Notes: generated from the letters alone by a model not told the origin. Shown: positions 40,155-64,000, counted from the first letter of the stretch. The stretch is DNA of 64,000 nt from Hyphomicrobiaceae bacterium (GCA_020638065.1 JACKJG010000013.1:19058-83057); one strand, 5' to 3'. Numbers and translations are program-made.

Positions 40155-40171
40155 GACAGGAACCGGGACGC

Positions 40172-42022: not shown

Positions 42023-42040
42023 AAGCGGAGACCCGGACAG

Positions 42041-43822
42041 ATGGCTACATTTCTCGTCATAAATACCAACGATTCAGGCGCTGGCAGTCTACGCGATGCT
42101 ATCGAGGCGGCGGCCGCCGACCCGGATGCGGACACGATCAAGTTCGCCTCCTGGCTGAGCGGCGAAACGATTTTCCTCCAGGATACACTGACCATCGAAT
42201 CCGGGACGGTGACCATCAACGGAGACATTAATGGTGATGGAGATCCGGATGTCATCATCTCTGGCGATGCGGGAGACGATGGCAAGTCTCTTGACGACGT
42301 TGGCATTCTGCTCCAGGTCCGGTCCGGAGCAAATGCCACGATCCAGTCCATGCATTTCACCGAGGCCTACGCGAAGGGGGCGAACGGATCAGGCTATTCT
42401 GGCGGCGGCACGGCCATCGCGGGTATTTCCAACCAGGGCGATCTCAGATTCTTCGATTCCGTGCTCCAGAATGCGCAAGCTTTCGGCGGCGATGGCGCAT
42501 CATCAACAATCTACGCACGCCATGGCGGCGATGGCTTCGCCGGCATCTACAATAGTGGCACGGCCTATATCCGAGATTCGCTTCTCACCACTGTATTTGC
42601 CTATGGTGGAGACGGCGCCGATGGGACTTTGGGAGGGGACGGTGGAAACGCAACCGCCGGCTTCTGGAATTTCGGCACGTTGAGGACCATCAATGCCGGC
42701 ATGAGTAGTTTCGGTGCATTCGCTGGCGCTGGCGGAGACTCCAGCACATCGGCTGACGGCGGCGACGGTGGCAACTCAAGACTGGGAATTCTGAATTACG
42801 GATCCTACCTGCCCCTGGGCCCTTCTGTGCATTCGGCCGGAGGTGCAAGTTTTGGGTTAGGGGGAACGTCCAACGGGGGTCAGAGCGGCGCCAATGGCAC
42901 CTTTCTGGAAAACTTCGCGGCATTGCAGGCAACATATACATCTGGGTTTTCCCAATTCGGCGATGTCATAACCGTCCCCATTGCACAAACTTTCATGGGC
43001 TTGGCGGGCGCCGATAGAATCGACAATTCTGGAGGCAGCGGAAAGCTCTATGGCGGCAGCGGCAACGATTACATCCTGACCAATGGCGCCAATGTTAAGG
43101 TCCAGGGCGGCTTGGGCGATGATTTCGTAAGAAATACCGGCATCGGCAATTCCACCATGATGTACGGGGGAAAAGGCAACGACACGCTTCAGCTCGACAA
43201 TGTCGGCCGCAATTTCACGCTGAACCTTTTGTCGGGCAATGCGATCAACAACAGCAACATTTACGGTTTTGAAAACATCATTGGCGACGACGACGCCAAT
43301 TTTACCGACCGCATCACCGGCGACAATAGCCGCAACATCCTCATCGGACGCAAGGGTGCCGACATCCTGAAGGGCATGAACGGCGACGATCAGCTATTTG
43401 GCGGCGACCAGGACGACAAGCTCTTCGGCGGCAACGATGATGATCACCTGTTCGGCGGGAACAACAACGACTCGCTGCAGGGCAACGACGGCAACGATCT
43501 GCTGTTCGGCGAAAACGGCAAGGACCTTCTGGACGGCGGCAGGAACGACGATCAGCTGGTTGGCGGCGGCAACAACGATCAGTTCAAGTTCGGCAAAGGC
43601 TACGACCGCGACGTGGTCATGGATTTCCAGGACAATATCGACACACTGGTCATCAACGACAATCTTTGGAAAGGCACGTTGTCCAGGAACCAGGTCCTCA
43701 TTCAATTCGCCACGCTCAAGAATAATGGTGACGTTGTCCTGAATTTCGGCAATGGCGACATTTTCAAGATCAAGGATGTCGGCAGCGTCGATGCTCTCAA
43801 GAACGACATGACAATCGTCTAG
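42041..43822 (+). CDS. P3: beta-helix / RTX calcium-binding protein paralog
   Basis: MATFLVINTNDSGAGSLRDAI, INGDINGDGDPDVIISGD and four AGIxNxG / GGDGG units are present, followed by an RTX block. The tail DQFKFGKGYDRDVVMDF..KNDMTIV is diverged from the cassette copies. Start is 18 nt after the P2 stop. Confidence 0.88.
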   Translation: MATFLVINTNDSGAGSLRDAIEAAAADPDADTIKFASWLSGETIFLQDTLTIESGTVTINGDINGDGDPDVIISGDAGDDGKSLDDVGILLQVRSGANATIQSMHFTEAYAKGANGSGYSGGGTAIAGISNQGDLRFFDSVLQNAQAFGGDGASSTIYARHGGDGFAGIYNSGTAYIRDSLLTTVFAYGGDGADGTLGGDGGNATAGFWNFGTLRTINAGMSSFGAFAGAGGDSSTSADGGDGGNSRLGILNYGSYLPLGPSVHSAGGASFGLGGTSNGGQSGANGTFLENFAALQATYTSGFSQFGDVITVPIAQTFMGLAGADRIDNSGGSGKLYGGSGNDYILTNGANVKVQGGLGDDFVRNTGIGNSTMMYGGKGNDTLQLDNVGRNFTLNLLSGNAINNSNIYGFENIIGDDDANFTDRITGDNSRNILIGRKGADILKGMNGDDQLFGGDQDDKLFGGNDDDHLFGGNNNDSLQGNDGNDLLFGENGKDLLDGGRNDDQLVGGGNNDQFKFGKGYDRDVVMDFQDNIDTLVINDNLWKGTLSRNQVLIQFATLKNNGDVVLNFGNGDIFKIKDVGSVDALKNDMTIV

Positions 43823-43840
43823 GGCAGGAGTGAAACTCCG

Positions 43841-45760
43841 ATGACTACTTTTCTTGTCATCAACAACAATGACAGCGGCTCCGGCAGCCTTCGTCAGGCA
43901 ATCCTGAACGCCGAAGAAAGCTCAAACCCGGGCGCCGATACGATCGAGTTTGCCCCGTGGATGACCGGCCAGACGATATTTCTTTCGGAAACGCTGACCA
44001 TCCAGTCGGGAAACCTGACAATCAATGGCGACATCAACGGCGATGGTGATCCTGACATCACAATTTCTGGTGATAGCGGGGACGATGGCCGATCTCCCGA
44101 CGATGTGGGCACACTGCTTCTTGTCGACTTCAATGCAACCGCCCGGATTAATTCTCTGATATTGGCCGACGGAACCTATTACGGAGCCAATACAGGCGGC
44201 ACCTATGGCCCGGGTTACATAACTCCGGTTGCGCGATCCGGTCTTGCAGGCATTGAAAATCGGGGAACTCTAACCCTGACCGACAATGTCATCACCAATA
44301 TGTATTCCAAGGGCGGCAACGGCGATAGCAGCTACGGCATTTACGGCCTCGCGGGGGGACAGGGGACGGCCGGCATTTTGAATTCGGGTCAGTTGACGAT
44401 CACTGACACAGCGCTGGAAGGCCTTACGGCCAAAGGCGGGAACGGTGCAAATGGCTATGGCGCCTACGATGGCGGCGATGGTGGACGCGCGCAGGTCGGC
44501 ATTCTGAATGGCTTCGGCAACATCAGCCTGCGAAACGTTGGCTTCAACAACATTAACGCGCTCGGTGGACAGGGTGGAGCGGGAGACGGCGCGGCGCGCA
44601 CGGGCGGCAATGGCGGAGAAGCGACTGCGGGAATTTGGATTTACAACGGAACCTATGTCAGCGTCGGCTATTCCGCACTGGGCGCGTTTACCGCAAATCC
44701 GGGCTCGGGCGGGTCTGGCCTGGGGGGCGCAGACCCCGGAGTCCCGGGCTATTACTATGCGCCTGTCCGAAGCGCGCCGGGAATTCTGACCGATTACGAT
44801 TCTGGGTTCACCCAGTCAGATGACACCCGCCCCACCACCGGACCGGGCCAGCGCATGTTCGGTTTTGCAGGAGACGATGTGCTGACCGACGGCTTTGGAG
44901 GCGGCAAGCTCTACGGCGGTAGCGGCGATGATTTTCTTTCGTCATATGGTGCAAACGTCATTGCCTATGGCGGGTCCGGGAACGACAGGATCAAAAACCT
45001 GTCACTGAACGCCAACACGATCATGGACGGCGGCAAAGGCAATGATCTGCTCGATGTGTCGGCGGATTCCTGGAGCTTCAAGCTCAACATGACCACCGGC
45101 AGCGCAAAAACAATCGATCCCAACAATCCAACCAACCTGTATGCGCTCACCGCCCGCAATTTCGAGAACGTCATCGGCACGAACCACGTGGACAACATCA
45201 CCGGCACCAATGGCGCCAATACCATCGCCGGCAATGACGGCGACGACAATCTCAAGGGGCTGGGCGGCAACGACCAGATTCTGGGTGGCAAAGGCGACGA
45301 CGATATTCGTGGTGGTGATGCCAACGACATCCTGCGCGGCGGCAACAACATTGATACACTGAGAGGCGACAACGGCAACGACATCGTGCATGGCGGCTCC
45401 GGAGCCGACTTCCTGTTTGGCGGCAACGCCAACGACAGGTTGCGCGGCGGTGACGGCAGCGACGAATTGCAGGGCGACAGAGGCAACGACGTGCTGCGCG
45501 GCGGCGGCGGCAAGGACACCTTCATTTTCGGCAAGGGGTTCGACAAGGATTCTGTCCGCGACTTTACCGACAATACCGATCAGATCGCTCTCAATGACAA
45601 TCTGTGGAAGGGCACATTGTCCAAGACCCAGATTCTGAACCAGTTCGCTACGCTCAAGGGCAATGGCGACGTCGTCTTCGATTTCGGCCACGGCGACATA
45701 TTCACGATCAAGGACGCCGGCAGTGTCGCGATCTTCAAGAACGACATGGTGATTATCTAG
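43841..45760 (+). CDS. P4: beta-helix / RTX calcium-binding protein paralog
   Basis: The MTTFLVINNNDSGSGSLRQAILNAEESS start is nearly identical in DNA to the P2 5' end. The central region is different, and the 3' cassette is identical in type to P1/P2. Start is 18 nt after the P3 stop. Confidence 0.88.
   Translation: MTTFLVINNNDSGSGSLRQAILNAEESSNPGADTIEFAPWMTGQTIFLSETLTIQSGNLTINGDINGDGDPDITISGDSGDDGRSPDDVGTLLLVDFNATARINSLILADGTYYGANTGGTYGPGYITPVARSGLAGIENRGTLTLTDNVITNMYSKGGNGDSSYGIYGLAGGQGTAGILNSGQLTITDTALEGLTAKGGNGANGYGAYDGGDGGRAQVGILNGFGNISLRNVGFNNINALGGQGGAGDGAARTGGNGGEATAGIWIYNGTYVSVGYSALGAFTANPGSGGSGLGGADPGVPGYYYAPVRSAPGILTDYDSGFTQSDDTRPTTGPGQRMFGFAGDDVLTDGFGGGKLYGGSGDDFLSSYGANVIAYGGSGNDRIKNLSLNANTIMDGGKGNDLLDVSADSWSFKLNMTTGSAKTIDPNNPTNLYALTARNFENVIGTNHVDNITGTNGANTIAGNDGDDNLKGLGGNDQILGGKGDDDIRGGDANDILRGGNNIDTLRGDNGNDIVHGGSGADFLFGGNANDRLRGGDGSDELQGDRGNDVLRGGGGKDTFIFGKGFDKDSVRDFTDNTDQIALNDNLWKGTLSKTQILNQFATLKGNGDVVFDFGHGDIFTIKDAGSVAIFKNDMVII
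45242..45760 (+). repeat. Near-identical ~520-bp 3' cassette, copy 3 (P4)
   Basis: See copy 1. Confidence 0.85.
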
Positions 45761-45958
45761 ACGGCAACGCGTTCAGTCTCAGCCTCGCCACAGCCTCTGA
45801 ACGAAGCCGGACCGTCCGCTGGACGGTGCCGCAATCGGCATTTTCCCCGTTTTATCTAGCCCGTCTCAGACCTTTGGCGCTCCAACTTGGGACCATCGGT
45901 CAATTGCCCGACAGACCTGATCCATTTGACAATTTGGCTCCGGCTTCAGGAGATCAAT

Positions 45959-47728
45959 ATGGCCACTTTTGTCGTTACAAACACCAATGACCAGGGCTCT
46001 GGCAGCTTGCGCGATGCCCTCGCGAAGGCCGAGCAGCACACAGGCACCGATACGATCGTCTTCAATTCCAACCTCGCTGGCCAGACGATATTCCTCGCTT
46101 CGACGTTGCAGATCAAAAGCGGAAACGTCATCATCAGTGGTGACACCAACGGCGACGGCGACGCCGATATCACGATTTCCGGCGACACGACGAACAATGG
46201 CCAGGGAGCCACGGATGTCGGCACGCTGCTTTCAATAGCAGGCCAGGCAACTGCCAGTATTGCCAGCTTCGTGTTCACGGACGGATATTCGCAAGGTTTG
46301 GCGTCGAACCAGGCCGGCGTTGCCGGCGAACGGGGAATGGCTGGCATCGTCAATAAGGGCCAGCTGTCCCTTTCAGACTCCATTGTCACCAACATGGTCG
46401 CCAAGGGCGGCACTGGCGGCGGCGATGCCGTCGATACCGATGATGGTGCCGACGCCTTTGCCGGGATCGACAATACGGGCACCCTGTCGATCTCCAACTC
46501 CTACATCGGCCAGAATAGCGCCTCCTCCGCAGACGCAAACAATGCGCTCAACAATGCCGGCGCCGGTGGGCTGGCGGTGGCGGGCATCCGAAACAAGGGC
46601 CAACTGGAAGCCGACGGCGTTCTGTTCACGGGAAACGTCGCTCTCGGAGGCGCTGGCGGACAAAGCATCAACCAGACCGGCGGCGACGGTGGCGCTGCCG
46701 GAGCAGGCATTTGGCAGGATGCGGGCTTTACGAGCGGCTATATCGGTCATGAAGCCGGCACGGCCACCGGCGGTGCTTACGGCCCGGGGAATCCCGGGCC
46801 GGGCGAGAATGGAAAGAGCTATGCGGGATTTCATGCCGAAGCTCCAAGCACGTCCAGTGTGGTCGTTTCGAATGAGGCCGTTTCAGATCATTTTGGCGGC
46901 ACGGGTATCGACCTGATCAACATCGCCGCAGGACAAAACGTTTTCGCCCTTCATGGCAACGACACCATCGACAACAGGGGACTTGATGTTGCCGGCATCA
47001 TTGTCCACGCCGGCAGCGGTAACGACAGGATCTATACCGGCACGCTCGACAGCTCGTTCGGTGACACCGGCAACGACAGGATTTTTGCTCAGGGCGACGC
47101 GACGGTGAACGCAGGCCTCGGGAATGATAAGGTCACGGTAACTGCGTTCACACCGGCCAGTTCGATGAAGGCGACCGGCAGCGCGGGCAATGACACCCTG
47201 GATTTCAGCGCAATCACGGGGCAGAATTTCAAACTTGATATGCAGACGGGACTGACCTCCGGCGCCGCAACATTTGCCAGGTTCGAGCGATTCATCGGAA
47301 TCGATGACGCGGGCTTCACCGACCGTATCAACGGAACCTCCGGCAAGAACAGCATAGATGGAATGGCCGGAGACGATATTCTGAGGGGGCAAGCCGGCAA
47401 CGACACGTTGCGAGGCGGCGCAGGCAGAGATTTTCTCGATGGGGGGACTCAAAATGACAAACTGCTTGGCGGTGCCGACAGCGACACGTTCAAATTCTCC
47501 AAGAAATACGGAATCGACGTGATCCTGGATTTTGCTGACGATGTCGACACCATCCTTCTCAACGACCGGCTCTGGAAAGGAACCATGACCAAGGCGCAGG
47601 TGCTTAGGCAATTCGCGACCCTTAACGACAATGGCAACGTCAAATTCGATTTCGGCAACGGCGACAAGCTCATCATCAAAGACGTTGGCAGCATCGACGT
47701 TTTAAAGAACGACCTCGTCATCATCTAG
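45959..47728 (+). CDS. P5: beta-helix / RTX calcium-binding protein paralog (most divergent of the + array)
   Basis: MATFVVTNTNDQGSGSLRDAL is preceded by AGGAG after a 198-nt gap. ISGDTNGDGDADITISGD, AGIxNxGxL units and a shorter RTX block are present. The tail is DTFKFSKKYGIDVILDF..KNDLVII. Confidence 0.87.
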   Translation: MATFVVTNTNDQGSGSLRDALAKAEQHTGTDTIVFNSNLAGQTIFLASTLQIKSGNVIISGDTNGDGDADITISGDTTNNGQGATDVGTLLSIAGQATASIASFVFTDGYSQGLASNQAGVAGERGMAGIVNKGQLSLSDSIVTNMVAKGGTGGGDAVDTDDGADAFAGIDNTGTLSISNSYIGQNSASSADANNALNNAGAGGLAVAGIRNKGQLEADGVLFTGNVALGGAGGQSINQTGGDGGAAGAGIWQDAGFTSGYIGHEAGTATGGAYGPGNPGPGENGKSYAGFHAEAPSTSSVVVSNEAVSDHFGGTGIDLINIAAGQNVFALHGNDTIDNRGLDVAGIIVHAGSGNDRIYTGTLDSSFGDTGNDRIFAQGDATVNAGLGNDKVTVTAFTPASSMKATGSAGNDTLDFSAITGQNFKLDMQTGLTSGAATFARFERFIGIDDAGFTDRINGTSGKNSIDGMAGDDILRGQAGNDTLRGGAGRDFLDGGTQNDKLLGGADSDTFKFSKKYGIDVILDFADDVDTILLNDRLWKGTMTKAQVLRQFATLNDNGNVKFDFGNGDKLIIKDVGSIDVLKNDLVII

Positions 47729-53475: not shown

Positions 53476-55371
53476 TTAAACGATCTGAATATCGTCCTTC
53501 AGCGCGCTGATGTTTCCGAAACCATCGAGACTCAATTCATCCTTGCCGAAATCCAGGACCACCTCGCCATTCACCTTTTTGGCGAACTGATTGAGAACCT
53601 GTTTTTTGGTCAGGTTGCCGTTCCACAGGTTGTGGTCCAGAACGATGGTATCGACATTGTTCTGAAAGTCTTCAACCACATCTTTGCCGTCCTTTTTGTT
53701 GAACCAGAACCTGTCGGCCCCAAGGCCACCAGTCAGACTGTCGTTCTGACGTCCCCCGCTCAGACTATCGTTTCCAGCACCGCCATCAAGCCGGTCCCGA
53801 CCGGTGCCGCCTGCCAGGATATCCTCGTTAGCACCTCCGAACAGCACGTCGTTTCCTTTGCCGCCCAAGAGGTTGTCGAGGCCCTTTCCTCCGTGCAGAT
53901 CATCATTGCCGTTTTGGCCGAACAGCTCATCATTGTTCGCGCCGCCGACGAGCAAGTCATTGCCGCCGCGGCCATGCATCATGTCATTTCCGGCAAGTCC
54001 CTGTATGACGTTTCGTGAATTCGTTCCGCTGATGTCGTCCTGCTCAGCGGCGCTGTCCGCTCCGATGAAGTTCTCGAAATCAACACCATAAAAGGCGGAG
54101 AAGTTCGACGGATTGGCCTGATTGAACGAACGTCCAAGCCCGGTTTCCATGTCAAGAAAGAACGAGAGATTGTTCTGGCTGACATCGAGCCCGTCCACGC
54201 CGGAGCCCCCATAGAGCTGAGCGGCGCCGTGGTTGGCGTGAACGATCATGTCGTCCCCTTCCGCTGCGATCACGGTCATGCCCGCGCCCTGAATATTGAT
54301 CACATCGTTGCCGCTTCCGGCATTGACATAACCACCACCGCCCTGATGCGTGAGCGTGTCATTGCCCCCCATGCTGTAGAAATTCGTGCCCACCGCGATC
54401 ATTTCACGGTCATCGCTCGCTGTTCCAAACAGGGATCCCGCAAGCTCGCTGGTCGCCAGATAGCTTGGGCCGCTGAGCTGCGAGGTCGCTGTCGACCCCG
54501 CGGGGGAATAGAACGGCCCACCCGCGATCAGTCCGCCGCTGCCACCCGTCAGCGTGCCTGTCTTGCTGGCAAACGTACCGCTTGAATAGGAACTGCCCCC
54601 GATGACGGGCCCGCCGACGGCATTGCCGCCGCCGCCACCATTAAAGGTATTGCTGTTGCCGCCATCGCCTCCCTTGACATAATTCGAGGCAAACAAGGCG
54701 CGGGTCATGCTGACGTTGCCGCCGGACGCCAAGACACCCGCATATGCGTTTCCGCCGTCACCGCCATAATAGCTGTCAGAGGATCCGCCCTGTCCTCCAA
54801 TGGCACCCAACCCGTTGAATGAGGTGTCGCGGATTGTCAGGTTTCCGCCCGTCGACAGGATTCCGGCAAACGCATTGCCGCCCTCCCCGGCATCGGTCCC
54901 TACGCCATTTGCGGCAGCACCGCCCCTGGCAATCATGTAGGTCAGAGCAGAGTTGGAAATCGTCAGATTGCCGCTGTTGAGTATGCCGGCAACTGCGGCA
55001 CCGCCCGCCTCGCCGTCGCTACTCCCTGCACTTCCTGCGCTGTAGGCGCCGTAAAAGACCATGGATTCAATGAAAACGTTGGCTCCGGATGAAACAGTCA
55101 GAAGGCCCGAAAGATCACCGCTACCCAGGCCGCCACCATCGGTATTGCCGGAGATGTAGATGTCCGGATCGCCATCCCCATCGACATCGCCATTGATGGT
55201 CACCTCTCCAGACCCAATACTCAGCGCGGAACTCAGAACAATCGGCTGGGTACCGAGCCAGGACACGAACGAAATCGTATCTGCACCGCTACTTGCCTCC
55301 GCGTCGGCAAGAGCCTGCCGCAAACTGCCAGTGCCGCTGTCGAAGTTATTGATGACCAGAAAATTCGCCAT
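53476..55371 (-). CDS. P6: beta-helix / RTX calcium-binding protein paralog
   Basis: Start MANFLVINNFDSGTGSLRQAL has GGAGAG upstream. INGDVDGDGDPDIYISGN and units such as AVAGILNSGNLTISNS..ARGG and GGDGGNAYAGVLASGGN are present. After the RTX block, the tail is DRFWFNKKDGKDVVEDF..KDDIQIV. Confidence 0.87.
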   Translation of the reverse strand: MANFLVINNFDSGTGSLRQALADAEASSGADTISFVSWLGTQPIVLSSALSIGSGEVTINGDVDGDGDPDIYISGNTDGGGLGSGDLSGLLTVSSGANVFIESMVFYGAYSAGSAGSSDGEAGGAAVAGILNSGNLTISNSALTYMIARGGAAANGVGTDAGEGGNAFAGILSTGGNLTIRDTSFNGLGAIGGQGGSSDSYYGGDGGNAYAGVLASGGNVSMTRALFASNYVKGGDGGNSNTFNGGGGGNAVGGPVIGGSSYSSGTFASKTGTLTGGSGGLIAGGPFYSPAGSTATSQLSGPSYLATSELAGSLFGTASDDREMIAVGTNFYSMGGNDTLTHQGGGGYVNAGSGNDVINIQGAGMTVIAAEGDDMIVHANHGAAQLYGGSGVDGLDVSQNNLSFFLDMETGLGRSFNQANPSNFSAFYGVDFENFIGADSAAEQDDISGTNSRNVIQGLAGNDMMHGRGGNDLLVGGANNDELFGQNGNDDLHGGKGLDNLLGGKGNDVLFGGANEDILAGGTGRDRLDGGAGNDSLSGGRQNDSLTGGLGADRFWFNKKDGKDVVEDFQNNVDTIVLDHNLWNGNLTKKQVLNQFAKKVNGEVVLDFGKDELSLDGFGNISALKDDIQIV

Positions 55372-55429
55372 CTGACTCTCCATGATCCTTGGGAGGGTAA
55401 CCAAAGCAATGCATGTCACAAAAATCGCC

Positions 55430-55473: not shown

Positions 55474-56241
55474 ATGATAATACTTGAAAAACTATACAAC
55501 AGTGCGGAATGCCATCTGGGCAACTCCAAGCCTGACTGGCCCGCCTTTGCCGCCGACGTCAAACAGGCGCTCGGTTCGGAATTGCTATTCTACCATCTCG
55601 CGCCAGTTGCTCGAGTGTCCGGCGCGCAAATGCCGGCGCCAAGGTGGTCAGAGCGGGTGACCGTCATCGCAACCAGCAACCCCGAAGCGGTGAGTGACTA
55701 TCTCAGTCAGGACTATCAGCAGGAACCCCCGGTCGCCGAAGACGCGCTGGCACCTCTCGAGCCGGTGCTGAGGACGGACTTTCTTTCGGATGACGAGTTC
55801 CGCGCCCTCGGCCCCATAGCGGACCACCAGATCAGGCTTGGCGTCTTTCATAACGCAATGGTGCCCGCCAGACTGACCGATGGTTCAACCATTCACCTGC
55901 TCCTCTGGCGTTCCGAAGAAGAGGAAAATTACAGCGAGCGCGACCGGCAGCGGCTGGCCCTGTTCATGCGCTATCTTCTCGCCTTGGTTGACACGCAGTT
56001 TCTGGCGGCCGATGCACCGGACAAGGCCGTATTGTCGTTCGGACAAAGGCATGGCCTCACCGGCGCAGAAACCAGCATTCTGTCCGATCTGCTTCAGGGG
56101 CGCTCGCCACGGGACATCGCTCACCAATCCGAAAGAAGTTATGGCACCGTCCGCTGGCACATCCAGAACATTCTGGAAAAGTGTCAGGTCGGCTCACAAA
56201 AGGATTTGCTGCGCGAGTTCTATCGACTTATCCACCACTAG
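55474..56241 (+). CDS. LuxR/FixJ-type (GerE HTH) transcriptional regulator with uncharacterised N-terminal domain
   Basis: The C-terminal LTGAETSILSDLLQGRSPRDIAHQSERSYGTVRWHIQNILEKCQVGSQKDLL is a LuxR_C-like HTH. The N-terminal 190 aa show no receiver Asp pocket or obvious autoinducer-binding motifs. The 5' end is AT-richer than the surroundings. Confidence 0.78.
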   Translation: MIILEKLYNSAECHLGNSKPDWPAFAADVKQALGSELLFYHLAPVARVSGAQMPAPRWSERVTVIATSNPEAVSDYLSQDYQQEPPVAEDALAPLEPVLRTDFLSDDEFRALGPIADHQIRLGVFHNAMVPARLTDGSTIHLLLWRSEEEENYSERDRQRLALFMRYLLALVDTQFLAADAPDKAVLSFGQRHGLTGAETSILSDLLQGRSPRDIAHQSERSYGTVRWHIQNILEKCQVGSQKDLLREFYRLIHH

Positions 56242-56311: not shown

Positions 56312-58309
56312 TTAGATGATGATATCGGTCCCGCCGATATCCTTGAGGTCAGCGCCCATGATCTTGATCTTGGTGCCGTTCGACTCAAAGATGACTTTGT
56401 CGTCGTTCGTTCCGTTCCACTCGCTGAAGTGACTAAGGGCGGCCTTTTTGTTGGAAAAACCGAAGGCCCTGAGGTCGAAACGATCCAAGCCGTCCCGGTA
56501 ATCCTTCACGGTGTCGATGCCGTCCTTCTTGCCGAATATCAGGATGTCATTTCCAGCCCCGGAACTGATGGTGTCGTTGCCGGCACCTGCATCGATTTTG
56601 TCGTTGCCCGAACCCCCAACGACCTTGTCCTTTCCGCGCCCTCCGGAAAGTGTGTCGTTGTCAGCACCGCCAAAAATAGTGTCGTCATTATCGCCACCGC
56701 TTATGACATCCCGGCCGTCCTCGCCCTTGAGGACATCTTTTCCCTTGTTTCCGTTGATCGTATCGGCACCGGTCCCGCCAAACGCCGCATCGTCGCCCCT
56801 TCCGCCATTGATCGTATCGCCACCGCCGTCCCCGAACAGCCTGTCGTTGTCGTCGTCGCCATTCAGTTGATCGGCCTGCCCGCCGCCCCGAAGCACATCG
56901 TTGCCGGAACCCCCGAAAAGAATGTCGGCGCCAGCCCGCCCTTCGATCGTGTTCTTTGCGCTCGTACCAACTACCGTGTCCTGAAAATTTTTGTTGTCAA
57001 CGCCGATGAAGTTTTCGAAGTTCATCGCCGTGCCCCAGCCCGACGTCAATACTCCGCTCGTCATATCGAACGACGCGCTTCCCGTGTCACCGGAAACATC
57101 GAGCGTGTCGATGCCCGACCCGCCATCCATCGTGGCATAGAAGGTATAGGTATTGACGATAGTATCATTTCCGGAACCGCCATAGGCCTTGGCCCCACTG
57201 CCGCTTGTGGTGATCGTGTCATCGCCCGATCCGCCATAGCAAATGCCCTGGCCCGCCGAATTGTCGATCACATCATCGCCCTGCAGACCGAAATAGGTGC
57301 CCCCATTTGCCACCGTGGCGTTGTCGGCCCCATAGGTGCCAAATCGATGGGCGGAGGAATCATGCTGAAAATCCAGTCCCGAATGATCACCAGAGCGAAA
57401 AATCGTGGATGTGTTCTGGCCAGATTGACCGGGTGTTCCAAAAGTCGGATCTGCATGTCCCTCGCCTCCGGCAGCACCCCCTCCGCCATTTGAGCCCAGA
57501 ATTCCGCTCGCGGTACCACCATTCAGCAACAATGCGCTAACCGCATCCCCGCCATCACCGCCCCAATTGTAGGCGTTGCCGCCGTTGCCACCGTTGGAAG
57601 ACGAACCCTGCGACATGGTTCGGTTGAGCACCAGCAAAGAAGACGCGCCGCCCGAATAAATCCCCGCAACGCCATCGCCACCATCGCCACCAAAGTTATA
57701 GCCATATGCCGCGGCGGCGCCGTCTGCACGATTGTTCAGCAAGAGCGAATCCGTCATCGTCAGGCTGCCACGATTGAAGACTGAGCCGAAGGCGCTCGCC
57801 CCATCCTGCGAATGACCATCAAAGTTAAAAAGGGGGCCTCCGCTGGCGCCGGCCCTCGCAAGATTGTCCCGAATGATCGAGTCCGTGATGGTCAGCGTCC
57901 CGTCATTGCGGATGCCGGCAATCGCGTCCTCGCCAGCTTGACCGGCGTTCGTCGCGTCCGCGCCTTTGGCATAGCCATCGGCGAACACAAGCGATCGCAC
58001 ATTCGCCGTCGCACCCACATTGACTTTCAGTAAGATGCCAACATCCGCCTGATCGGCACCGTCATTGCCCGTATCGCCAGAAATTGTGATGTCCGGATCA
58101 CCGTCACCATCAAGATCGCCGTCGATGGTCACGGTGCCTTGAGTGATCGTCAGTGTCGAGCCGAGATAGATGCTTTTGTCACTCACGCCAGCCAGGCTTT
58201 TGTCGAACACGATCGTGTCGACGTTTGCACTTGCGTTGGCCTGCTCGATAGCGGCCCGCAGACTGCCCGTACCGGAATCATTGAAATTGGTGACAACAAG
58301 TCTGGCCAT
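56312..58309 (-). CDS. P7: beta-helix / RTX calcium-binding protein paralog
   Basis: MARLVVTNFNDSGTGSLRAAI, IDGDLDGDGDPDITISGD, AIAGIRNDGTLTITDS and GGDGGDGVAGIYSGG are present. A long RTX block follows. The tail ILIFGKKDGIDTVKDY..GGTDIII is the most divergent of the family. Confidence 0.87.
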   Translation of the reverse strand: MARLVVTNFNDSGTGSLRAAIEQANASANVDTIVFDKSLAGVSDKSIYLGSTLTITQGTVTIDGDLDGDGDPDITISGDTGNDGADQADVGILLKVNVGATANVRSLVFADGYAKGADATNAGQAGEDAIAGIRNDGTLTITDSIIRDNLARAGASGGPLFNFDGHSQDGASAFGSVFNRGSLTMTDSLLLNNRADGAAAAYGYNFGGDGGDGVAGIYSGGASSLLVLNRTMSQGSSSNGGNGGNAYNWGGDGGDAVSALLLNGGTASGILGSNGGGGAAGGEGHADPTFGTPGQSGQNTSTIFRSGDHSGLDFQHDSSAHRFGTYGADNATVANGGTYFGLQGDDVIDNSAGQGICYGGSGDDTITTSGSGAKAYGGSGNDTIVNTYTFYATMDGGSGIDTLDVSGDTGSASFDMTSGVLTSGWGTAMNFENFIGVDNKNFQDTVVGTSAKNTIEGRAGADILFGGSGNDVLRGGGQADQLNGDDDNDRLFGDGGGDTINGGRGDDAAFGGTGADTINGNKGKDVLKGEDGRDVISGGDNDDTIFGGADNDTLSGGRGKDKVVGGSGNDKIDAGAGNDTISSGAGNDILIFGKKDGIDTVKDYRDGLDRFDLRAFGFSNKKAALSHFSEWNGTNDDKVIFESNGTKIKIMGADLKDIGGTDIII

Positions 58310-58413: not shown

Positions 58414-59262
58414 CTACTTCCCGGCCGATTTCATCGTGATCCGGTTGGCCTTGGTCGGGTGATTTTCGTTCCAGAACTGCAGCCCCTCGAACTGCTTGAA
58501 CAGATCGGGTGGCAACACGGTGTTGCGCGGTTTCCACTCGACCTTCTTGCGCACCGTATGCAGGTCCTTGGCCATCATGAAATTATCGAAATCCTCGGCC
58601 TGATATTCGACATCGTCAAAATCATGCTTGAACTCATCGAGCCCGGTGAACTGGTAGATCAGTTCCATCGTATCGGCCGGATATTTGACGAGGAGGTCGT
58701 ATTCAACCAGCAGCAGTTTGTCCGCATGCTCGCCAAAATAGGCTTCCTTGAGCGCCGACCAGGCAAACCCGATCATCCGGTCGCGGCGCTGCAATGCGTC
58801 CGCCCGGCTGAACACGGTTGAACTTTCCGCGTCCGAAAACATCCGCGAATGATCAAGCGCGTTCTTGCGGATCAGGACCTCGACCGAATCGAGGATCCAG
58901 GCCGGGTTGCGGACACAGCAGATGACCTTTGAACCGGGAAAGAGCTCCTGCAGGATGGCCATCCGAGTGGTCCACAGCCGGTTCGTGTCGAAGATGATCT
59001 CGCGCGGTTCGTCCATCTCACCATAATAGGAATCGAAAACCGATCTGAGGATCGCCCGCTTCTGCCGCTCGGTCAGAAAGATGGCGAATTCGTTCCCCGC
59101 GCCCATTGACGAGAAAATCGACCGGAAAATGTGCCCGATCGGGCTCGACATGCCCGCATGAATTTTCGGATTCTGCCGCAGGATAGCGGACAGAAGGGTC
59201 GACCCGCTGCGCGGCAACCCCGAAATGAAATGAAATGTATGGTCCACGGAATCCCCAAACAT
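58414..59262 (-). CDS. PAPS-dependent sulfotransferase family protein
   Basis: The 5'-PSB loop is ISGLPRSGSTLLSAIL (PRSGST). A 3'-PB-like segment is VICCVRNPAWILDS. Length is 282 aa and the protein is cytoplasmic (no signal peptide or TM segment). The ATG at 59262 follows the in-frame TTG at 59265 used by the track. Confidence 0.8.
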   Translation of the reverse strand: MFGDSVDHTFHFISGLPRSGSTLLSAILRQNPKIHAGMSSPIGHIFRSIFSSMGAGNEFAIFLTERQKRAILRSVFDSYYGEMDEPREIIFDTNRLWTTRMAILQELFPGSKVICCVRNPAWILDSVEVLIRKNALDHSRMFSDAESSTVFSRADALQRRDRMIGFAWSALKEAYFGEHADKLLLVEYDLLVKYPADTMELIYQFTGLDEFKHDFDDVEYQAEDFDNFMMAKDLHTVRKKVEWKPRNTVLPPDLFKQFEGLQFWNENHPTKANRITMKSAGK

Positions 59263-59376
59263 CAATCTGGTGTTCCGTGGACCCTACGTGAAGGTCCCTC
59301 GCCTGTCAGCACCCAAACACCCCGACGGCTGCGTGATTGCCGGTCGCCGGTAAAAACTTGCAGGCCGGCGGGCGGG

Positions 59377-61269
59377 TCAAACGAAATCCATGTCGTTCTT
59401 GATCTCGTCGACCGTGCTGGCACCCTTGACCGTCAGCTTGTCGCCGTTGCCGAAGTCAAACACCACGTTGCCGTTCGAATTCAACACGGCAAACTCCTTG
59501 AGAAAACTGGCCTTCGACTGTCCGGCGCTCGATTTCAGATTGCTGGAAAACTGGATCGTGTCGATATCGTCCTCGAAATCCAGGAAGGTGTCGCGATCAT
59601 AACCCTTTTTGTAGACGATCGTGTCGGCTCCGGCCTCTCCCTTGACCCTGTCATTATCCCGCCCACCATCCAGCAAATCGCCGTCATCCCCACCGAAAAG
59701 CCGGTCAATGCCGTTATTGCCGCGCAGAATGTCTACTCCGGTTCCGCCGGTCACGGTGTCGTTTCCTCTGCCGCCATTGATCTGATCATCCTGGTCTCCG
59801 CCAAGAATGATGTCCGCTCCCCGGCCTCCGACCAATATGTCGTTGCCATTGCGGCCGGAAATGAAGTCAGCACCGTTGGTGCCAATAATCTGATCCGAAA
59901 AACCGGCATCATTGATCCCGTAAACCTTTTCAAATCCGGCGAATGTGGATCCGTTGGTCGCGTTTCCGGTCCGCATGTCGAGGCTGAGATTGAGACCTGT
60001 GGTTTCGAAAATCAAAGTGTCGTTGCCAAGGCCACCATTGGCACCCATTCCGCTGAACGAGGAAACGTGGAATATGTCGTTCCCTCGGTTGCCGTGGGCG
60101 TAAAGCGCATTTGAGAGCACGAAGGAATCGTCCCCCGCCCCGCCATAGTTCAGGGTCCCAAGACCGGTGGAGGTAATGTTGTCGTGACCAGCGCCGCCGC
60201 GGATCGTCACGCTATAACCCGAACTGTTGTCAATCGTGTCATCGCCATCCAACCCAAAAATGACATCCCAGGGATCGGAGCTGACAACAATATTGTTGCT
60301 TCCAGAGGTTCCAAACGCGTTATAGACGGACTCGTTCCAGGCCTGTGTGGCTGGATCGATGGTTCCGCCAAGCTGATAGATGGAGGCACTGTCAGAACCG
60401 GCCGCGCCAGCCGTTCCTAAATTTGTTCCGCCTCCTGCCCCGGCCACTCTGATCCCGCCGGAATATCCGATGATCGCATCGACGTTACCGCTCGTCTGGA
60501 AGATGCCCGCCGCCGCATGCCCCCCCTGGCCCGCGGTGAATGCATATGAATATCCGCCGGTACCGCCGAACGCATAATTGTTGACGAACAAGACCCCAAT
60601 GGCCTCCAGATTACCCGCGTTCAGGATGCCGGACACGCCCCGGCCGCCATCACCGGCGGCAAATTCAGATGCCCCGGCGGCCCTGCCGAATGCGTGGTTT
60701 GCCTCGAAATAGCTGTCGCTGATTATCAGGGTTCCGGAATTGTAGATGCCGGCCGTCGCCGATGCGGCGTCTTCGGATCCCGACGGACTGATCGTGTAGC
60801 CCCCGGAAAGGCCACCATATGCGTAACTGCCGCTGAAGTGGCTGTTCTCGATCGTCAGCGAACCCTTATTGAAGATGCCGGCGACAGCATCTTCGCCGGC
60901 TTCTCCCGGGTTGATGCCATTGGCACCCTTGGCAAAAGCATTCACGAACTGGAGTGAACTCAGTGTGACGTCGGCCGCCGAATTTACCTGAACCAGAACG
61001 CCGAGGTCCGTGACCTCCCCTGTGCCGCTGTCGTCAGAGTCCCCGGACAGGAATATGTCGGCCTCACCGTCACCATCGATGTCGCCATCAATCGTGACGT
61101 TTCCCCGTTTGATCGTCAGCGTGTTTTGCAGGAAGATAGACTGACCGGTCAACGAGGCGTCAAACTGGATCGTATCCGCGCCGTCCCCGTTTTTGTTCGC
61201 AAGATTGATTGCTCGCCGCAGGCTTCCAGCACCGGAATCTGCTGTGCTTGTAACAAGAAAAGTTGCCAT
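59377..61269 (-). CDS. P8: beta-helix / RTX calcium-binding protein paralog
   Basis: MATFLVTSTADSGAGSLRRAI has GGAGGA upstream. IDGDIDGDGEADIFLSGD and four AGI[FYL]NxGxL..GG units are present, followed by an RTX block. The tail is DTIVYKKGYDRDTFLDF..KNDMDFV. Confidence 0.87.
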   Translation of the reverse strand: MATFLVTSTADSGAGSLRRAINLANKNGDGADTIQFDASLTGQSIFLQNTLTIKRGNVTIDGDIDGDGEADIFLSGDSDDSGTGEVTDLGVLVQVNSAADVTLSSLQFVNAFAKGANGINPGEAGEDAVAGIFNKGSLTIENSHFSGSYAYGGLSGGYTISPSGSEDAASATAGIYNSGTLIISDSYFEANHAFGRAAGASEFAAGDGGRGVSGILNAGNLEAIGVLFVNNYAFGGTGGYSYAFTAGQGGHAAAGIFQTSGNVDAIIGYSGGIRVAGAGGGTNLGTAGAAGSDSASIYQLGGTIDPATQAWNESVYNAFGTSGSNNIVVSSDPWDVIFGLDGDDTIDNSSGYSVTIRGGAGHDNITSTGLGTLNYGGAGDDSFVLSNALYAHGNRGNDIFHVSSFSGMGANGGLGNDTLIFETTGLNLSLDMRTGNATNGSTFAGFEKVYGINDAGFSDQIIGTNGADFISGRNGNDILVGGRGADIILGGDQDDQINGGRGNDTVTGGTGVDILRGNNGIDRLFGGDDGDLLDGGRDNDRVKGEAGADTIVYKKGYDRDTFLDFEDDIDTIQFSSNLKSSAGQSKASFLKEFAVLNSNGNVVFDFGNGDKLTVKGASTVDEIKNDMDFV

Positions 61270-61444: not shown

Positions 61445-62848
61445 TCAGACAAACGCAATGTCGTTCTTGAGCGCGGAGAGATTGCCAACGCCATCCACGA
61501 CGAGCCTGTCGCCGTCGCCGAATTTGAAAACGGCATCACCGTTCTGGACGGAAGCAAAAGCGGCGATGAACTCGGATTTCTTCATCGATCCGGCATTCAG
61601 GCGCTTTGCGAAATAGATCGTGTCCCGATCGTTTTCGAAGTCTTTGATGACGTCGACATCGTATCCCCGGTCGAAGAAGAATTGGTCTGCGCCACGCCCT
61701 CCATAAAGCTGGTCGTGTCCCGTGCCTGCACCGAGCGCATCTGCACCGCGTCCCCCGGCAATTCGGTCATTGCCTCCCGCCCCGAAAATCTCGTCGTTGC
61801 CGCCCAAACCATCGATAAAGTCCCTTTTTCCGCTGCCCAGAAGCTGGTCATCATAGGTGTCCTCTCCGAACAGGAAGACGCGGTCTGTTTTCTCGTTTTT
61901 CAGAAAGGCATTCTGTTTCAGGTTCGAACTGACCACGCCGTCGCGGAAATCAAATATCGCAACATCATCGACCTGAATGATCTTGTCGAATTGCGACTTG
62001 TAAATCCGCGTGAGCGCGTCACCCATGCCATAATTGCTGTGCGCCCAATTATGGTTCTTGATGTTGAACGACGTTTTGGCGTCATTGTTGCCGTAGTCGA
62101 AATACCAGCGCCAGGTCCCGTTATCGCTGTGACTGCGAATCTCGAATTCGAACATTTTGCGGAGTGCGCTTCCGCTTGGAAGCGCCTCGACATCCGAATT
62201 CTTTACAAAGAACAGATCCGCAAACGTATCGTAAGTGCCAAGCGCTGGGTCAGTATCGTCGTAATTCTTCTTGTAGGTATTGTACGATTGAAACAGCCAA
62301 TCGTTCGCAGCGCCAATATTCAATACGGAACCGTCTTTGACAACATATTCCGACCCAAATGAAACAAAAGTGGCGTTTGCCTTCTTGATATCGAAGTGAT
62401 CGGAAAACGATCTGGACAATTCGTTGGTAGCCACGCCACCGAGGCTGAAACCGGTCACCAGGAGCTTCGAAGATGGCGTCATGATGCCGTCCAGAGCACG
62501 ATAGACCTCGCCGAAATCGTCGGCATAATCTGTGTTGAACTGCGGCGGAGCCGGCAGGATTTCGGGAAACACCTTTTTCAAATCGGAATAGGTGATGGGC
62601 GTGAATGCGATGGCATACTTGCCAGGGTGCTTGGTGTCCTTGAACACGCTAAGGCCGATATCGCTGTTGTAGCTCGACGCGAAGAACTTTCGCCCAGACT
62701 TGCCACTCAAGCCAAGTTCACCCGCCGTCATGGGCTCCCAGGAGCCTGTCTTTTGGGGAACAATTCCGGTGCTGATGTACTTGAATGCCTTGATCAAACC
62801 AATGGCCGCCGTAACGAAGGAGCGGCTGGCCATTTCATCGAAATTCAT
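61445..62848 (-). CDS. Lipase (class 3 / alpha-beta hydrolase)-like domain fused to RTX repeats and the family C-terminal tail
   Basis: The nucleophile elbow LLVTGFSLGGVATNEL (GxSxG) lies in an approximately 330-aa N-terminal domain. RTX repeats GGNDEIFGAGGNDRIAGGRGADALGAGTGHDQLYGGRGAD follow. The tail is DQFFFDRGYDVDVIKDF..KNDIAFV. There is no signal peptide. The N-terminal domain is AT-richer than the RTX part. Confidence 0.8.
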   Translation of the reverse strand: MNFDEMASRSFVTAAIGLIKAFKYISTGIVPQKTGSWEPMTAGELGLSGKSGRKFFASSYNSDIGLSVFKDTKHPGKYAIAFTPITYSDLKKVFPEILPAPPQFNTDYADDFGEVYRALDGIMTPSSKLLVTGFSLGGVATNELSRSFSDHFDIKKANATFVSFGSEYVVKDGSVLNIGAANDWLFQSYNTYKKNYDDTDPALGTYDTFADLFFVKNSDVEALPSGSALRKMFEFEIRSHSDNGTWRWYFDYGNNDAKTSFNIKNHNWAHSNYGMGDALTRIYKSQFDKIIQVDDVAIFDFRDGVVSSNLKQNAFLKNEKTDRVFLFGEDTYDDQLLGSGKRDFIDGLGGNDEIFGAGGNDRIAGGRGADALGAGTGHDQLYGGRGADQFFFDRGYDVDVIKDFENDRDTIYFAKRLNAGSMKKSEFIAAFASVQNGDAVFKFGDGDRLVVDGVGNLSALKNDIAFV

Positions 62849-63078: not shown

Positions 63079-64000
63079 TCAAACGATGCTGATATCATCG
63101 TAGAGCTGAGAGACCGAACTCAGGCCCTTGATGGTGATGGATTCATTGGGCGAAAACGTCAACACCACGTTTCCATCAGCATCAAGGCTGGAAAAGTGGT
63201 AGAGCACGTCTGCGACGCTCAGGGTTCCCGACCACAATTTGTGATTGAGCACCAAAGTGTCTGTGTTGTCGGTGAAATCGAGAACGGTGTCGTGTCCGCC
63301 GCCCTTCTTGAAGACAAACAGGTCGCTGCCCGTGCCGCCGGTCAGAGTGTCGTTGCCTGCCTCGCCGTTCAGCGTGTCATTGCCGGCGCCGCCATTGATC
63401 TTGTCTTTGCCGGACCCGCCAAAAGCCTCGTCCTTTCCGGAATCACAGTTCAACGTGTCGTTGTTGTTTCCGCCGTAAAGCTTGTCGTTGCCGCCACCGC
63501 CTGAAAGCTTATCATTTCCGGCGTCGCCCTTGAGTACATCCTTCCCGCCGTCACCGCCGAGCACGTCTTTGCCGGCGCCACCCTGAAGCTTGTCGTTTCC
63601 TGCGCCGCCCCGGATTTTGTCGTTTCCGTTGTCACCTTTCACGATGTCGCGGTCCCCGTCACCAAAGAGCTTGTCGTTGCCGGCCCCTCCGGAGAACTTG
63701 TCATTGCCGTTGCCGCCCTTGACGTTGTCGTCTCCGCTTCCGCCATTGGCCGAGTCCCGGCCCCCACCCAGAACCAGTTTGTCGTTTCCGCCATCTCCCT
63801 TCACGACGTCGCTGCCTGCGCCACTCGAAAGCGTGTCCTTGCCATTGCCACCATTCAGGCGATCGTTCCCGCTGTCGCCCCAGACCTGGTCATTGCCGGA
63901 ACCGCCTTTGAGAACGTCGTTGCCGCCGTCCCCGTGAACCTGGTCGTTGCCGCCGCCGCCATCCACATTGTCCGATGCACTTCCACCGAACAACTTGTCT
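63079..64000 (-). CDS. RTX calcium-binding repeat protein, C-terminal part (5' end beyond window)
   Basis: The frame stays open to the window edge (..DKLFGGSASDNVDGGGGNDQV..). There are more than 20 consecutive GGxGxDxUx nonapeptides, then the family tail DLFVFKKGGGHDTVLDF..YDDISIV. Confidence 0.85.
   Translation of the reverse strand, partial: DKLFGGSASDNVDGGGGNDQVHGDGGNDVLKGGSGNDQVWGDSGNDRLNGGNGKDTLSSGAGSDVVKGDGGNDKLVLGGGRDSANGGSGDDNVKGGNGNDKFSGGAGNDKLFGDGDRDIVKGDNGNDKIRGGAGNDKLQGGAGKDVLGGDGGKDVLKGDAGNDKLSGGGGNDKLYGGNNNDTLNCDSGKDEAFGGSGKDKINGGAGNDTLNGEAGNDTLTGGTGSDLFVFKKGGGHDTVLDFTDNTDTLVLNHKLWSGTLSVADVLYHFSSLDADGNVVLTFSPNESITIKGLSSVSQLYDDISIV

Follow-up and report, generated by a model that had tools for sequence, protein, structure and literature searches.

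A TPST/RaxST-like sulfotransferase gene paired with giant secreted proteins across bacterial phyla

RaxST of Xanthomonas oryzae acts in the cytoplasm, where it sulfates RaxX ahead of type I export through RaxAB/RaxC, and HlyC acylates lysines of proHlyA, likewise before export. To our knowledge, RaxX is so far the sole bacterial product for which tyrosine sulfation has been demonstrated. Here we analyze a sulfotransferase gene (ST) in a 64,000-nt stretch of Hyphomicrobiaceae bacterium DNA (GCA_020638065.1 JACKJG010000013.1:19058-83057; the window), in which it lies between genes for secreted repeats-in-toxin (RTX) proteins. Homologs of raxST at ~40% identity have a patchy distribution in proteobacteria and cyanobacteria and occur in ‘diverse genetic contexts’ (Liu et al. 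2019), and the only hint in the literature of a linkage like the one reported here is a single sentence, given as an ‘unpublished observation’, in Stewart & Ronald 2022. We find that ST is related to the tyrosylprotein sulfotransferases TPST1 and TPST2 and that its gene accompanies giant secreted or surface proteins in dozens of genera from several phyla. The reading that we prefer, and to which we give about an even chance, is that ST is a cytoplasmic, PAPS-dependent (3'-phosphoadenosine 5'-phosphosulfate) TPST/RaxST-like protein (peptide) sulfotransferase that modifies the adjacent secreted proteins while they are unfolded and before they are exported.

The gene has the following position and product.

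58414-59265, minus strand: sulfotransferase (ST), 283 aa from TTG; TPST-like, Sulfotransfer_3, cytoplasmic, PAPS-binding motifs intact.

The open reading frame (ORF) is intact over the 283 aa counted from TTG, and the next ATG is at 59262. The true start is likely to be the GTG at 59247, with a product of 277 aa, because homologs begin ‘MDHTFHF’ and a GGGGA motif lies 4 nt upstream of this GTG. A database protein of 277 aa (P0001) corresponds to the ORF and is identical to it over 98% of its length. In Pfam, ST matches Sulfotransfer_3 (PF13469, E=2.8e-17) and Sulfotransfer_1 (PF00685, 4.2e-09) and no further model at E<=0.01, those for Stf0 and Sulfotransfer_2 included. ST contains the 5'-phosphosulfate-binding (5'-PSB) loop ‘GLPRSGSTLL’ and the 3'-phosphate-binding (3'-PB) motif CCVRNPAWILDS, and neither of them varies when 23 family members are aligned, with the 3'-PB stretch ‘VRNPAWILDS’ unchanged in all 23 homologs; the 5'-PSB loop and the 3'-PB Arg...Ser are the elements that mark the PAPS-dependent sulfotransferase superfamily. 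The loop begins ~10 residues into the protein and no hydrophobic leader or signal peptide can be read off the sequence, and ST is therefore cytoplasmic. The preliminary description of this DNA had named a PAPS-type sulfotransferase with a PRSGST 5'-PSB loop and no signal peptide, which these results bear out. The family is large, with more than 7,400 database proteins at E<=1e-5, many of them 55-78% identical to the ST of the window. One homolog of 341 aa (P0066; L087:10001-11026) has a C-terminal extension of ~60 aa that resembles an RTX secretion tail and may be either a genuine fusion or what a frameshift has left behind; a 780-aa RTX protein follows it.

TPST1 and TPST2 are the closest solved relatives of ST by sequence, by profile and by predicted fold. 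As a single sequence searched against all PDB chains, ST finds TPST2 first (E=2e-5), with TPST1 at E=2e-3, and the best sulfotransferase outside the TPSTs is heparan sulfate NDST at E=0.9. A profile of the ST family places TPST1 first (8e-6 to 5e-5 for TPST1/2), followed by the sulfotransferase domains of polyketide synthases (0.01) and NDST (0.016). The AlphaFold model of ST (pLDDT 89, pTM 0.87), compared with the PDB by Foldseek, returns TPSTs at all ranks from 1 to 13 (E=3e-11 to 9e-9), then the sulfotransferase domains of olefin synthase (OLS) and CurM (2e-7 to 8e-7) and, at lower ranks, heparan sulfate enzymes and cytosolic SULTs at 1e-5 or weaker. The TPST match leaves the C-terminal third of ST (residues ~210-283) uncovered. 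The three comparisons are concordant, and ST therefore belongs to the TPST-like branch (Sulfotransfer_3), in which RaxST has also been placed (PMC9372746). The preliminary description had proposed to sort the enzyme among the RaxST, NodH, Stf0 and carbohydrate sulfotransferase classes. The result is TPST-like, and a NodH/NoeE/Stf0-type identity was rejected: neither the Stf0 nor the Sulfotransfer_2 model matches, the sole NCBIfam match is NoeE at 29 bits (cut-off 500) over the N-terminal 118 residues around the PSB loop, and no record from Rhizobium or Sinorhizobium came up at E<=1e-5 when 72,556 plasmids were searched by tblastn, which left similarity of the NodH/NoeE type undetected there.

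The pairing of ST with giant secreted proteins is a conserved gene partnership that crosses phyla and not a local accident. For a forward test we took 80 loci from one-genome-per-species contigs, with an ST 49-75% identical to that of the window, and searched them in six frames with hidden Markov models; alpha-, beta- and gammaproteobacteria, cyanobacteria and one Bacteroidota genome are represented. In 58 of the 80 loci, ST is followed downstream on its own strand by a DUF4347 domain at a distance of 60-1600 nt, mostly 60-450 nt; Pfam confirmed the domain in two of the 58. It forms the N-terminus of proteins of ~960 to >3300 aa, many of which are cut by contig ends, and in roughly half of these giants a segment follows directly that resembles the N-terminal ‘head’ domain of the RTX proteins in the window. 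Sixteen more loci, mostly from alphaproteobacteria and Nostoc, have ST adjoining proteins with at least three RTX motifs and/or the head domain itself, and the remaining six show neither type of partner, two of them being cut by contig ends. The Nostoc loci are arranged much like the window, with ST genes alternating with proteins of ~630 aa that combine head, cadherin and RTX domains.

The same association is seen closer to the window. In one relative (ST 77% identical), RTX proteins of 1361, 1063 and 1546 aa surround the gene, and the one downstream has the head domain (E=6e-23); in a second lineage, again at 77% identity, the protein encoded after ST has >990 aa and contains repeats and RTX motifs. 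In Coraliihabitans (ST 59% identical) a 1425-aa RTX protein follows, and an ST at 60% identity (L089:11044-19536) precedes a protein of 2830 aa that combines three Collar and three head domains with cadherin and RTX domains, and the opposite end of this locus carries another ST. The preliminary description had named a lack of conservation in related genomes among the results that would refute its proposal. The linkage survives this test: ST was found beside DUF4347, head or RTX proteins in 74 of the 80 loci and in all five close-relative contexts examined. In the reverse test, metagenomic loci were sampled by their DUF4347 domain. ST lies directly upstream of DUF4347 in 47 of the 73 informative loci, and it is present in every one of the 43 loci in which DUF4347 is at least 48% identical to the Pseudomonas type.

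Two side observations concern the partner domains. The fusion of Collar and head domains in the 2830-aa giant, set against the separate Collar genes beside ST in gammaproteobacteria, is a Rosetta-stone link between the two. In an alignment of DUF4347 (L039:11148-11642 and 14 other loci), the Cys of ‘YGC’ never varies and ‘SHG’ is nearly constant; His and Cys placed after hydrophobic strands recall the clan CD peptidases (caspase-like or MARTX-CPD-like), and self-processing of the giants is a speculation to which these motifs might lead.

We clustered all ORFs in the 80 loci and checked the recurrent neighbours of ST against Pfam and NCBIfam. The adenosine 5'-phosphosulfate kinase CysC recurs in 18 loci, which points to a real need for PAPS. 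A GNAT protein occurs in 22 loci, and phage-tail-Collar proteins, between one and three of them, in 25. The remaining families are a second Sulfotransfer_3 protein (13 loci), an Asp/Asn beta-hydroxylase of PF05118 (12), an M50/daptide-like HExxH protease fused to HlyD (12), an HlyD protein (10), TolC (8) and a PMT_2 transferase (6, all Pseudomonas). Judged by their domain assignments, the recurrent neighbours other than CysC belong to protein- or peptide-modifying families, and glycan-assembly genes are not part of the conserved neighbour set in the 80 loci. Genes of this set surround ST and the DUF4347 giant in L038, L049, L053, L058, L067, L068 and other gamma- and betaproteobacterial loci. 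We found no literature describing this neighbourhood, and a search for DUF4347 or tail collar together with sulfotransferase (and hydroxylase) returned nothing relevant.

In the window, ST lies among eight paralogs that share one architecture, five on the plus strand and three on the minus strand, together with a regulator and further RTX genes.

59377-61269, minus strand: P8, upstream neighbour of ST, 630 aa; a right-handed beta-helix ‘head’ at the N-terminus (MATFLVTSTADSGAGSLRRAI...), RTX repeats and, at the C-terminus, a type-I-secretion-like tail.
56312-58309, minus strand: P7, downstream neighbour of ST, 665 aa; head, RTX and C-terminal tail.
53476-55419, minus strand: P6, a further paralog, 647 aa; head and RTX.
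38349-47728, plus strand: array of five head + RTX paralogs, candidate additional substrates.
38349-40154, 39998/40169-42022, 42041-43822, 43841-45760 and 45887/45959-47728, plus strand: the members of that array.
55474-56241, plus strand: LuxR/GerE-family regulator, divergent, between P6 and P7, with weak EpsA-like similarity.
61445-62848, minus strand: RTX protein with a GFSLG serine-hydrolase (lipase/esterase-like) N-terminal part, co-directional with and upstream of P8.
63079-63993, minus strand: RTX-repeat protein, its C-terminal part cut off by the window end.

As the preliminary description had noted, ST stands co-directionally between two RTX paralogs. The gap from P8 is 111 nt counted from the TTG start (114 from ATG, 129 from GTG) and that to P7 is 104 nt, and neither gap holds a terminator-like site. 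P7 and P8 both have HemolysinCabind matches in Pfam, and P7 is the most likely co-transcribed partner or substrate of ST. The LuxR/GerE-family regulator may control the paralog cluster. All eight paralogs (the three on the minus strand start at 53476, 56312 and 59377) have an N-terminal module of ~300 aa opening with ‘MATFLV(I/T)N..DSG.GSLR.AI’, followed by RTX nonapeptide repeats and a C-terminal tail like that of type I substrates. The head module is predicted to be a right-handed parallel beta-helix (pLDDT 88). Its fold matches in the PDB are weak (TM-score ~0.3) and include alginate lyases of polysaccharide lyase family 6, VexL, RbmB, AlgE4, tailspikes and Rhombotarget A; the head was also tested as a recognizable glycan-active enzyme, and these generic beta-helix matches were not decisive. 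The domain is very common, with 17,480 matches at E<=1e-3 in a profile search of 1.8 billion representative proteins. Three members of the array (38349-40154, 39998-42022 and 43841-45760) are 94-95% identical at the DNA level over their last 550-600 nt, which encode the RTX repeats and the secretion tail, and ~40% identical at the protein level in their beta-helix halves, a pattern that speaks for a recent gene conversion in the export module. The remaining window is housekeeping (dcw cluster, ligA, recN, katG, oxyR).

The cross-phylum adjacency suggests that bacteria sulfate such giant proteins before export. In the window, we propose P7 and P8 as substrates, perhaps along with the rest of the eight head + RTX paralogs. 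The analysis shows the enzyme class, the intact cofactor motifs, the TPST kinship and the conserved gene pair; it is the substrates, the modified residue and the timing before export that we infer. Calcium is low in the cytoplasm, and RTX proteins would remain unfolded there until they leave by type I export; ST would bind an extended segment of the unfolded protein in the fashion of TPSTs. Sulfate would then pass from PAPS to a hydroxyl group, most probably that of Tyr, with Ser/Thr also possible, and the protein, once exported, would bear fixed negative charges, with an effect on calcium binding, on adhesion or on the recognition of partners. Such a reaction ahead of export is mechanistically plausible, given that TPST-type enzymes bind peptides in extended form and that RTX proteins have not yet folded in the cytoplasm. 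Tyr as the acceptor residue is a tentative choice, which we rate somewhat below an even chance. Under the wider proposal set out further below, ST would, in many gamma- and betaproteobacteria, act together with the Asp/Asn beta-hydroxylase, GNAT, second sulfotransferase and PMT-like transferase, a modifier set that would be a bacterial counterpart of eukaryotic secretory-pathway modifications; the P1-P8 array would be a compact alphaproteobacterial version of the same giant-protein sulfation.

A number of observations weigh against this reading. The kinship with the TPSTs is remote (~21% identity, TM-score ~0.56 in Foldseek), and in the HMMER alignment the catalytic base of TPST2, Glu99, falls on Ser40 of ST, with no acidic equivalent there. 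The family consensus at this position is ‘HAxM(T/S)SP’, with Ser/Thr instead of Glu, and the catalytic base of ST may lie at another position. No Tyr is invariant in the heads of P1-P8, and the eight proteins lack a canonical acidic Tyr cluster and offer few acidic contexts; the tyrosines that do recur, those of ‘x-Y-G-G-S-G-N-D’, are semi-conserved, in 4-6 of the 8 paralogs. The conserved ‘D-Y’ just after DUF4347 was considered as a universal site and rejected, given that several ST-positive loci have ‘D-F’. The 64-kb window contains no ABC signature (Walker A + LSGGQ), no match to the HlyD or TolC models and no cysC. In the reverse test, ST is found in only 4 of the 30 loci with more distant DUF4347 domains, and it therefore accompanies a large subset of DUF4347 proteins, not all. 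Nor do the partner giants have an export route in common: RTX tails are found in those of cyanobacteria and alphaproteobacteria, and several gammaproteobacterial ones have a Sec signal and a Gly-rich, hydrophobic, basic C-terminus. Three gene contexts belong on the same side. In the megaplasmid of Ralstonia solanacearum OE1-1 (L091, 145607-146521 and downstream), a 46%-identical ST, cysC and a multimodular non-ribosomal peptide synthetase (NRPS) of >5000 aa lie in a row; in L001, an ST at 75% identity directly follows a Wzy_C (O-antigen-ligase-like) gene; and in the Geminicoccaceae locus L044, ST follows a Wzx-type (Polysacc_synt) flippase, with another sulfotransferase nearby.

These points bear directly on what the preliminary description had proposed. 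Its idea that ST sulfates the neighbouring proteins, on the precedent of RaxST, gains from the TPST kinship and from the protein-modifying and PAPS-supplying neighbours, but it finds no conserved Tyr site and no RaxX, RaxA or RaxB in the window. The tyrosine motifs it had offered as sites, ‘AYGGDGADG’ and ‘GYYYAP’, are present in single paralogs (42041 and 43841) and are not conserved among the eight. Coupling to type I secretion had to be abandoned as a conserved principle, given that many partner giants have a Sec signal and a C-terminal anchor-like tail instead of RTX. The L022 and L064 giants, which have a Sec signal at the start, possess a C-terminus that is first Gly-rich, then a hydrophobic helix and finally basic, and that has the look of a sorting signal of the GlyGly-CTERM/rhombosortase type.

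The preliminary description had raised, as its second hypothesis, the sulfation of a surface polysaccharide or lipid. The Wzy_C and flippase neighbours would suit an enzyme that sulfates a surface polysaccharide, lipopolysaccharide (LPS) or lipid precursor in the cytoplasm, to which the beta-helix and RTX proteins then bind or anchor, or which they cleave. The head beta-helix weakly matches polysaccharide lyases, depolymerases and epimerases, and rhizobial LPS and capsule sulfotransferases are precedents. We nevertheless consider this explanation unlikely, as those fold matches stay at a TM-score of ~0.3, the window cluster, like the large majority of the 80 loci, lacks glycosyltransferase, polymerase and flippase genes, and the conserved partner is the giant protein itself. 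Carbohydrate sulfotransferases also rank well below the TPSTs by sequence and by fold, in line with the missing Stf0 and Sulfotransfer_2 matches and the lack of a rhizobial record in the plasmid search. A related possibility is that ST sulfates a glycan that is later attached to the secreted proteins, which would then be the final carriers and not the direct acceptor. The PMT_2 genes (protein O-mannosyltransferase-like) of the six Pseudomonas loci could serve such a route, the fold of the Wzy_C protein that precedes ST in L001 is used by O-oligosaccharyltransferases, and cyanobacterial RTX surface proteins such as oscillin are glycoproteins. With no glycosyltransferase set conserved with ST, none beside it in the window, and closest relatives that act on peptides, this seems to us very unlikely.

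The Ralstonia arrangement leads to another alternative, in which ST acts on a small peptide, a natural product or an unrelated substrate and owes its place among RTX genes to co-transfer in a mobile cassette. The 46%-identical homolog occurs in 133 Ralstonia megaplasmid records, with the ST-cysC-NRPS order read in OE1-1, and this order suggests a sulfated non-ribosomal peptide; it fits a peptide substrate and not a secreted giant. The NRPS is cytoplasmic. The plasmid contexts in Acetobacter and Caballeronia were also inspected and gave no useful information. The Pseudomonas loci with the daptide-like HExxH protease-HlyD fusion, HlyD and TolC resemble a RiPP-type export set (RiPP, a peptide that is made on the ribosome and modified after translation), and lateral transfer of raxST homologs has been described (Liu et al. 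2019). Same-strand adjacency to giants across three phyla at 49-77% identity is, however, too persistent for hitch-hiking. The 64-kb window contains neither NRPS nor RiPP machinery, and the gaps around ST (104-129 nt) cannot encode a RaxX-like precursor. We therefore hold a small or unrelated substrate to be very unlikely for the window, and we retain modification of the adjacent secreted proteins as the preferred reading.

Taken more widely, that reading amounts to the proposal that protein sulfation, most likely on Tyr, is a widespread, unrecognized modification of giant bacterial surface and RTX proteins, installed before export by a laterally mobile TPST-like enzyme; we advance it tentatively, as a little less probable than its opposite. 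If true, protein sulfation would be a common bacterial modification beyond RaxX, reaching the adhesins and RTX proteins of Pseudomonas, Shewanella, Massilia, roseobacter-like alphaproteobacteria, Nostoc, Microcoleus and others. It would have consequences for calcium binding, for interactions in the biofilm matrix, for host mimicry and for the annotation of secretomes by mass spectrometry, and the family would be a source of soluble bacterial TPST-like enzymes for engineering sulfated proteins. The spread of bacterial protein sulfation, a long-standing question, thereby becomes directly testable.

Compared with the described systems, ST is most like RaxST, in being a cytoplasmic, non-membrane, PAPS-dependent enzyme of the TPST-like branch that is encoded beside exported products. 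The spacing of the catalytic Arg and Ser is nearly the same, 108 residues in ST (R19...S127) and 107 in RaxST (Arg-11...Ser-118), and the distribution of the ST family fits the proteobacterial and cyanobacterial pattern of Liu et al., which is consistent with the family but is not an orthology test. The ST locus is nevertheless not a RaxX-RaxSTAB system: the window has no small precursor with a double-glycine leader, no peptidase-ABC exporter and no membrane fusion protein, and the partners of ST are proteins of 600 to >3000 aa. With TPST1 and TPST2 (PDB 3AP1, 5WRI), ST has the 5'-PSB ‘PRSG(S/T)T’ and the 3'-PB Arg/Ser in common, but it is soluble and cytoplasmic, whereas the TPSTs are type II membrane proteins of the Golgi, and it differs further in the non-conserved Glu99 and in the distance already given (~21% identity, TM-score ~0.56). 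The rhizobial enzymes NodH, NoeE, LpsS and KpsS are likewise alphaproteobacterial, PAPS-dependent and cell-surface modifying, but the 29-bit NoeE match is the only similarity and no nod, lps or kps genes lie near ST. With HlyC/HlyA, the locus has in common a small cytoplasmic modifier encoded beside an RTX protein, whose target would be the still unfolded pro-protein, ahead of its type I secretion; the reaction differs (sulfation versus lysine acylation) and the fold is unrelated, so the likeness is one of analogy only. What is new in relation to all of these systems is that a TPST/RaxST-like sulfotransferase has as its partner not a RiPP but a large secreted protein of the RTX, beta-helix or DUF4347 type.

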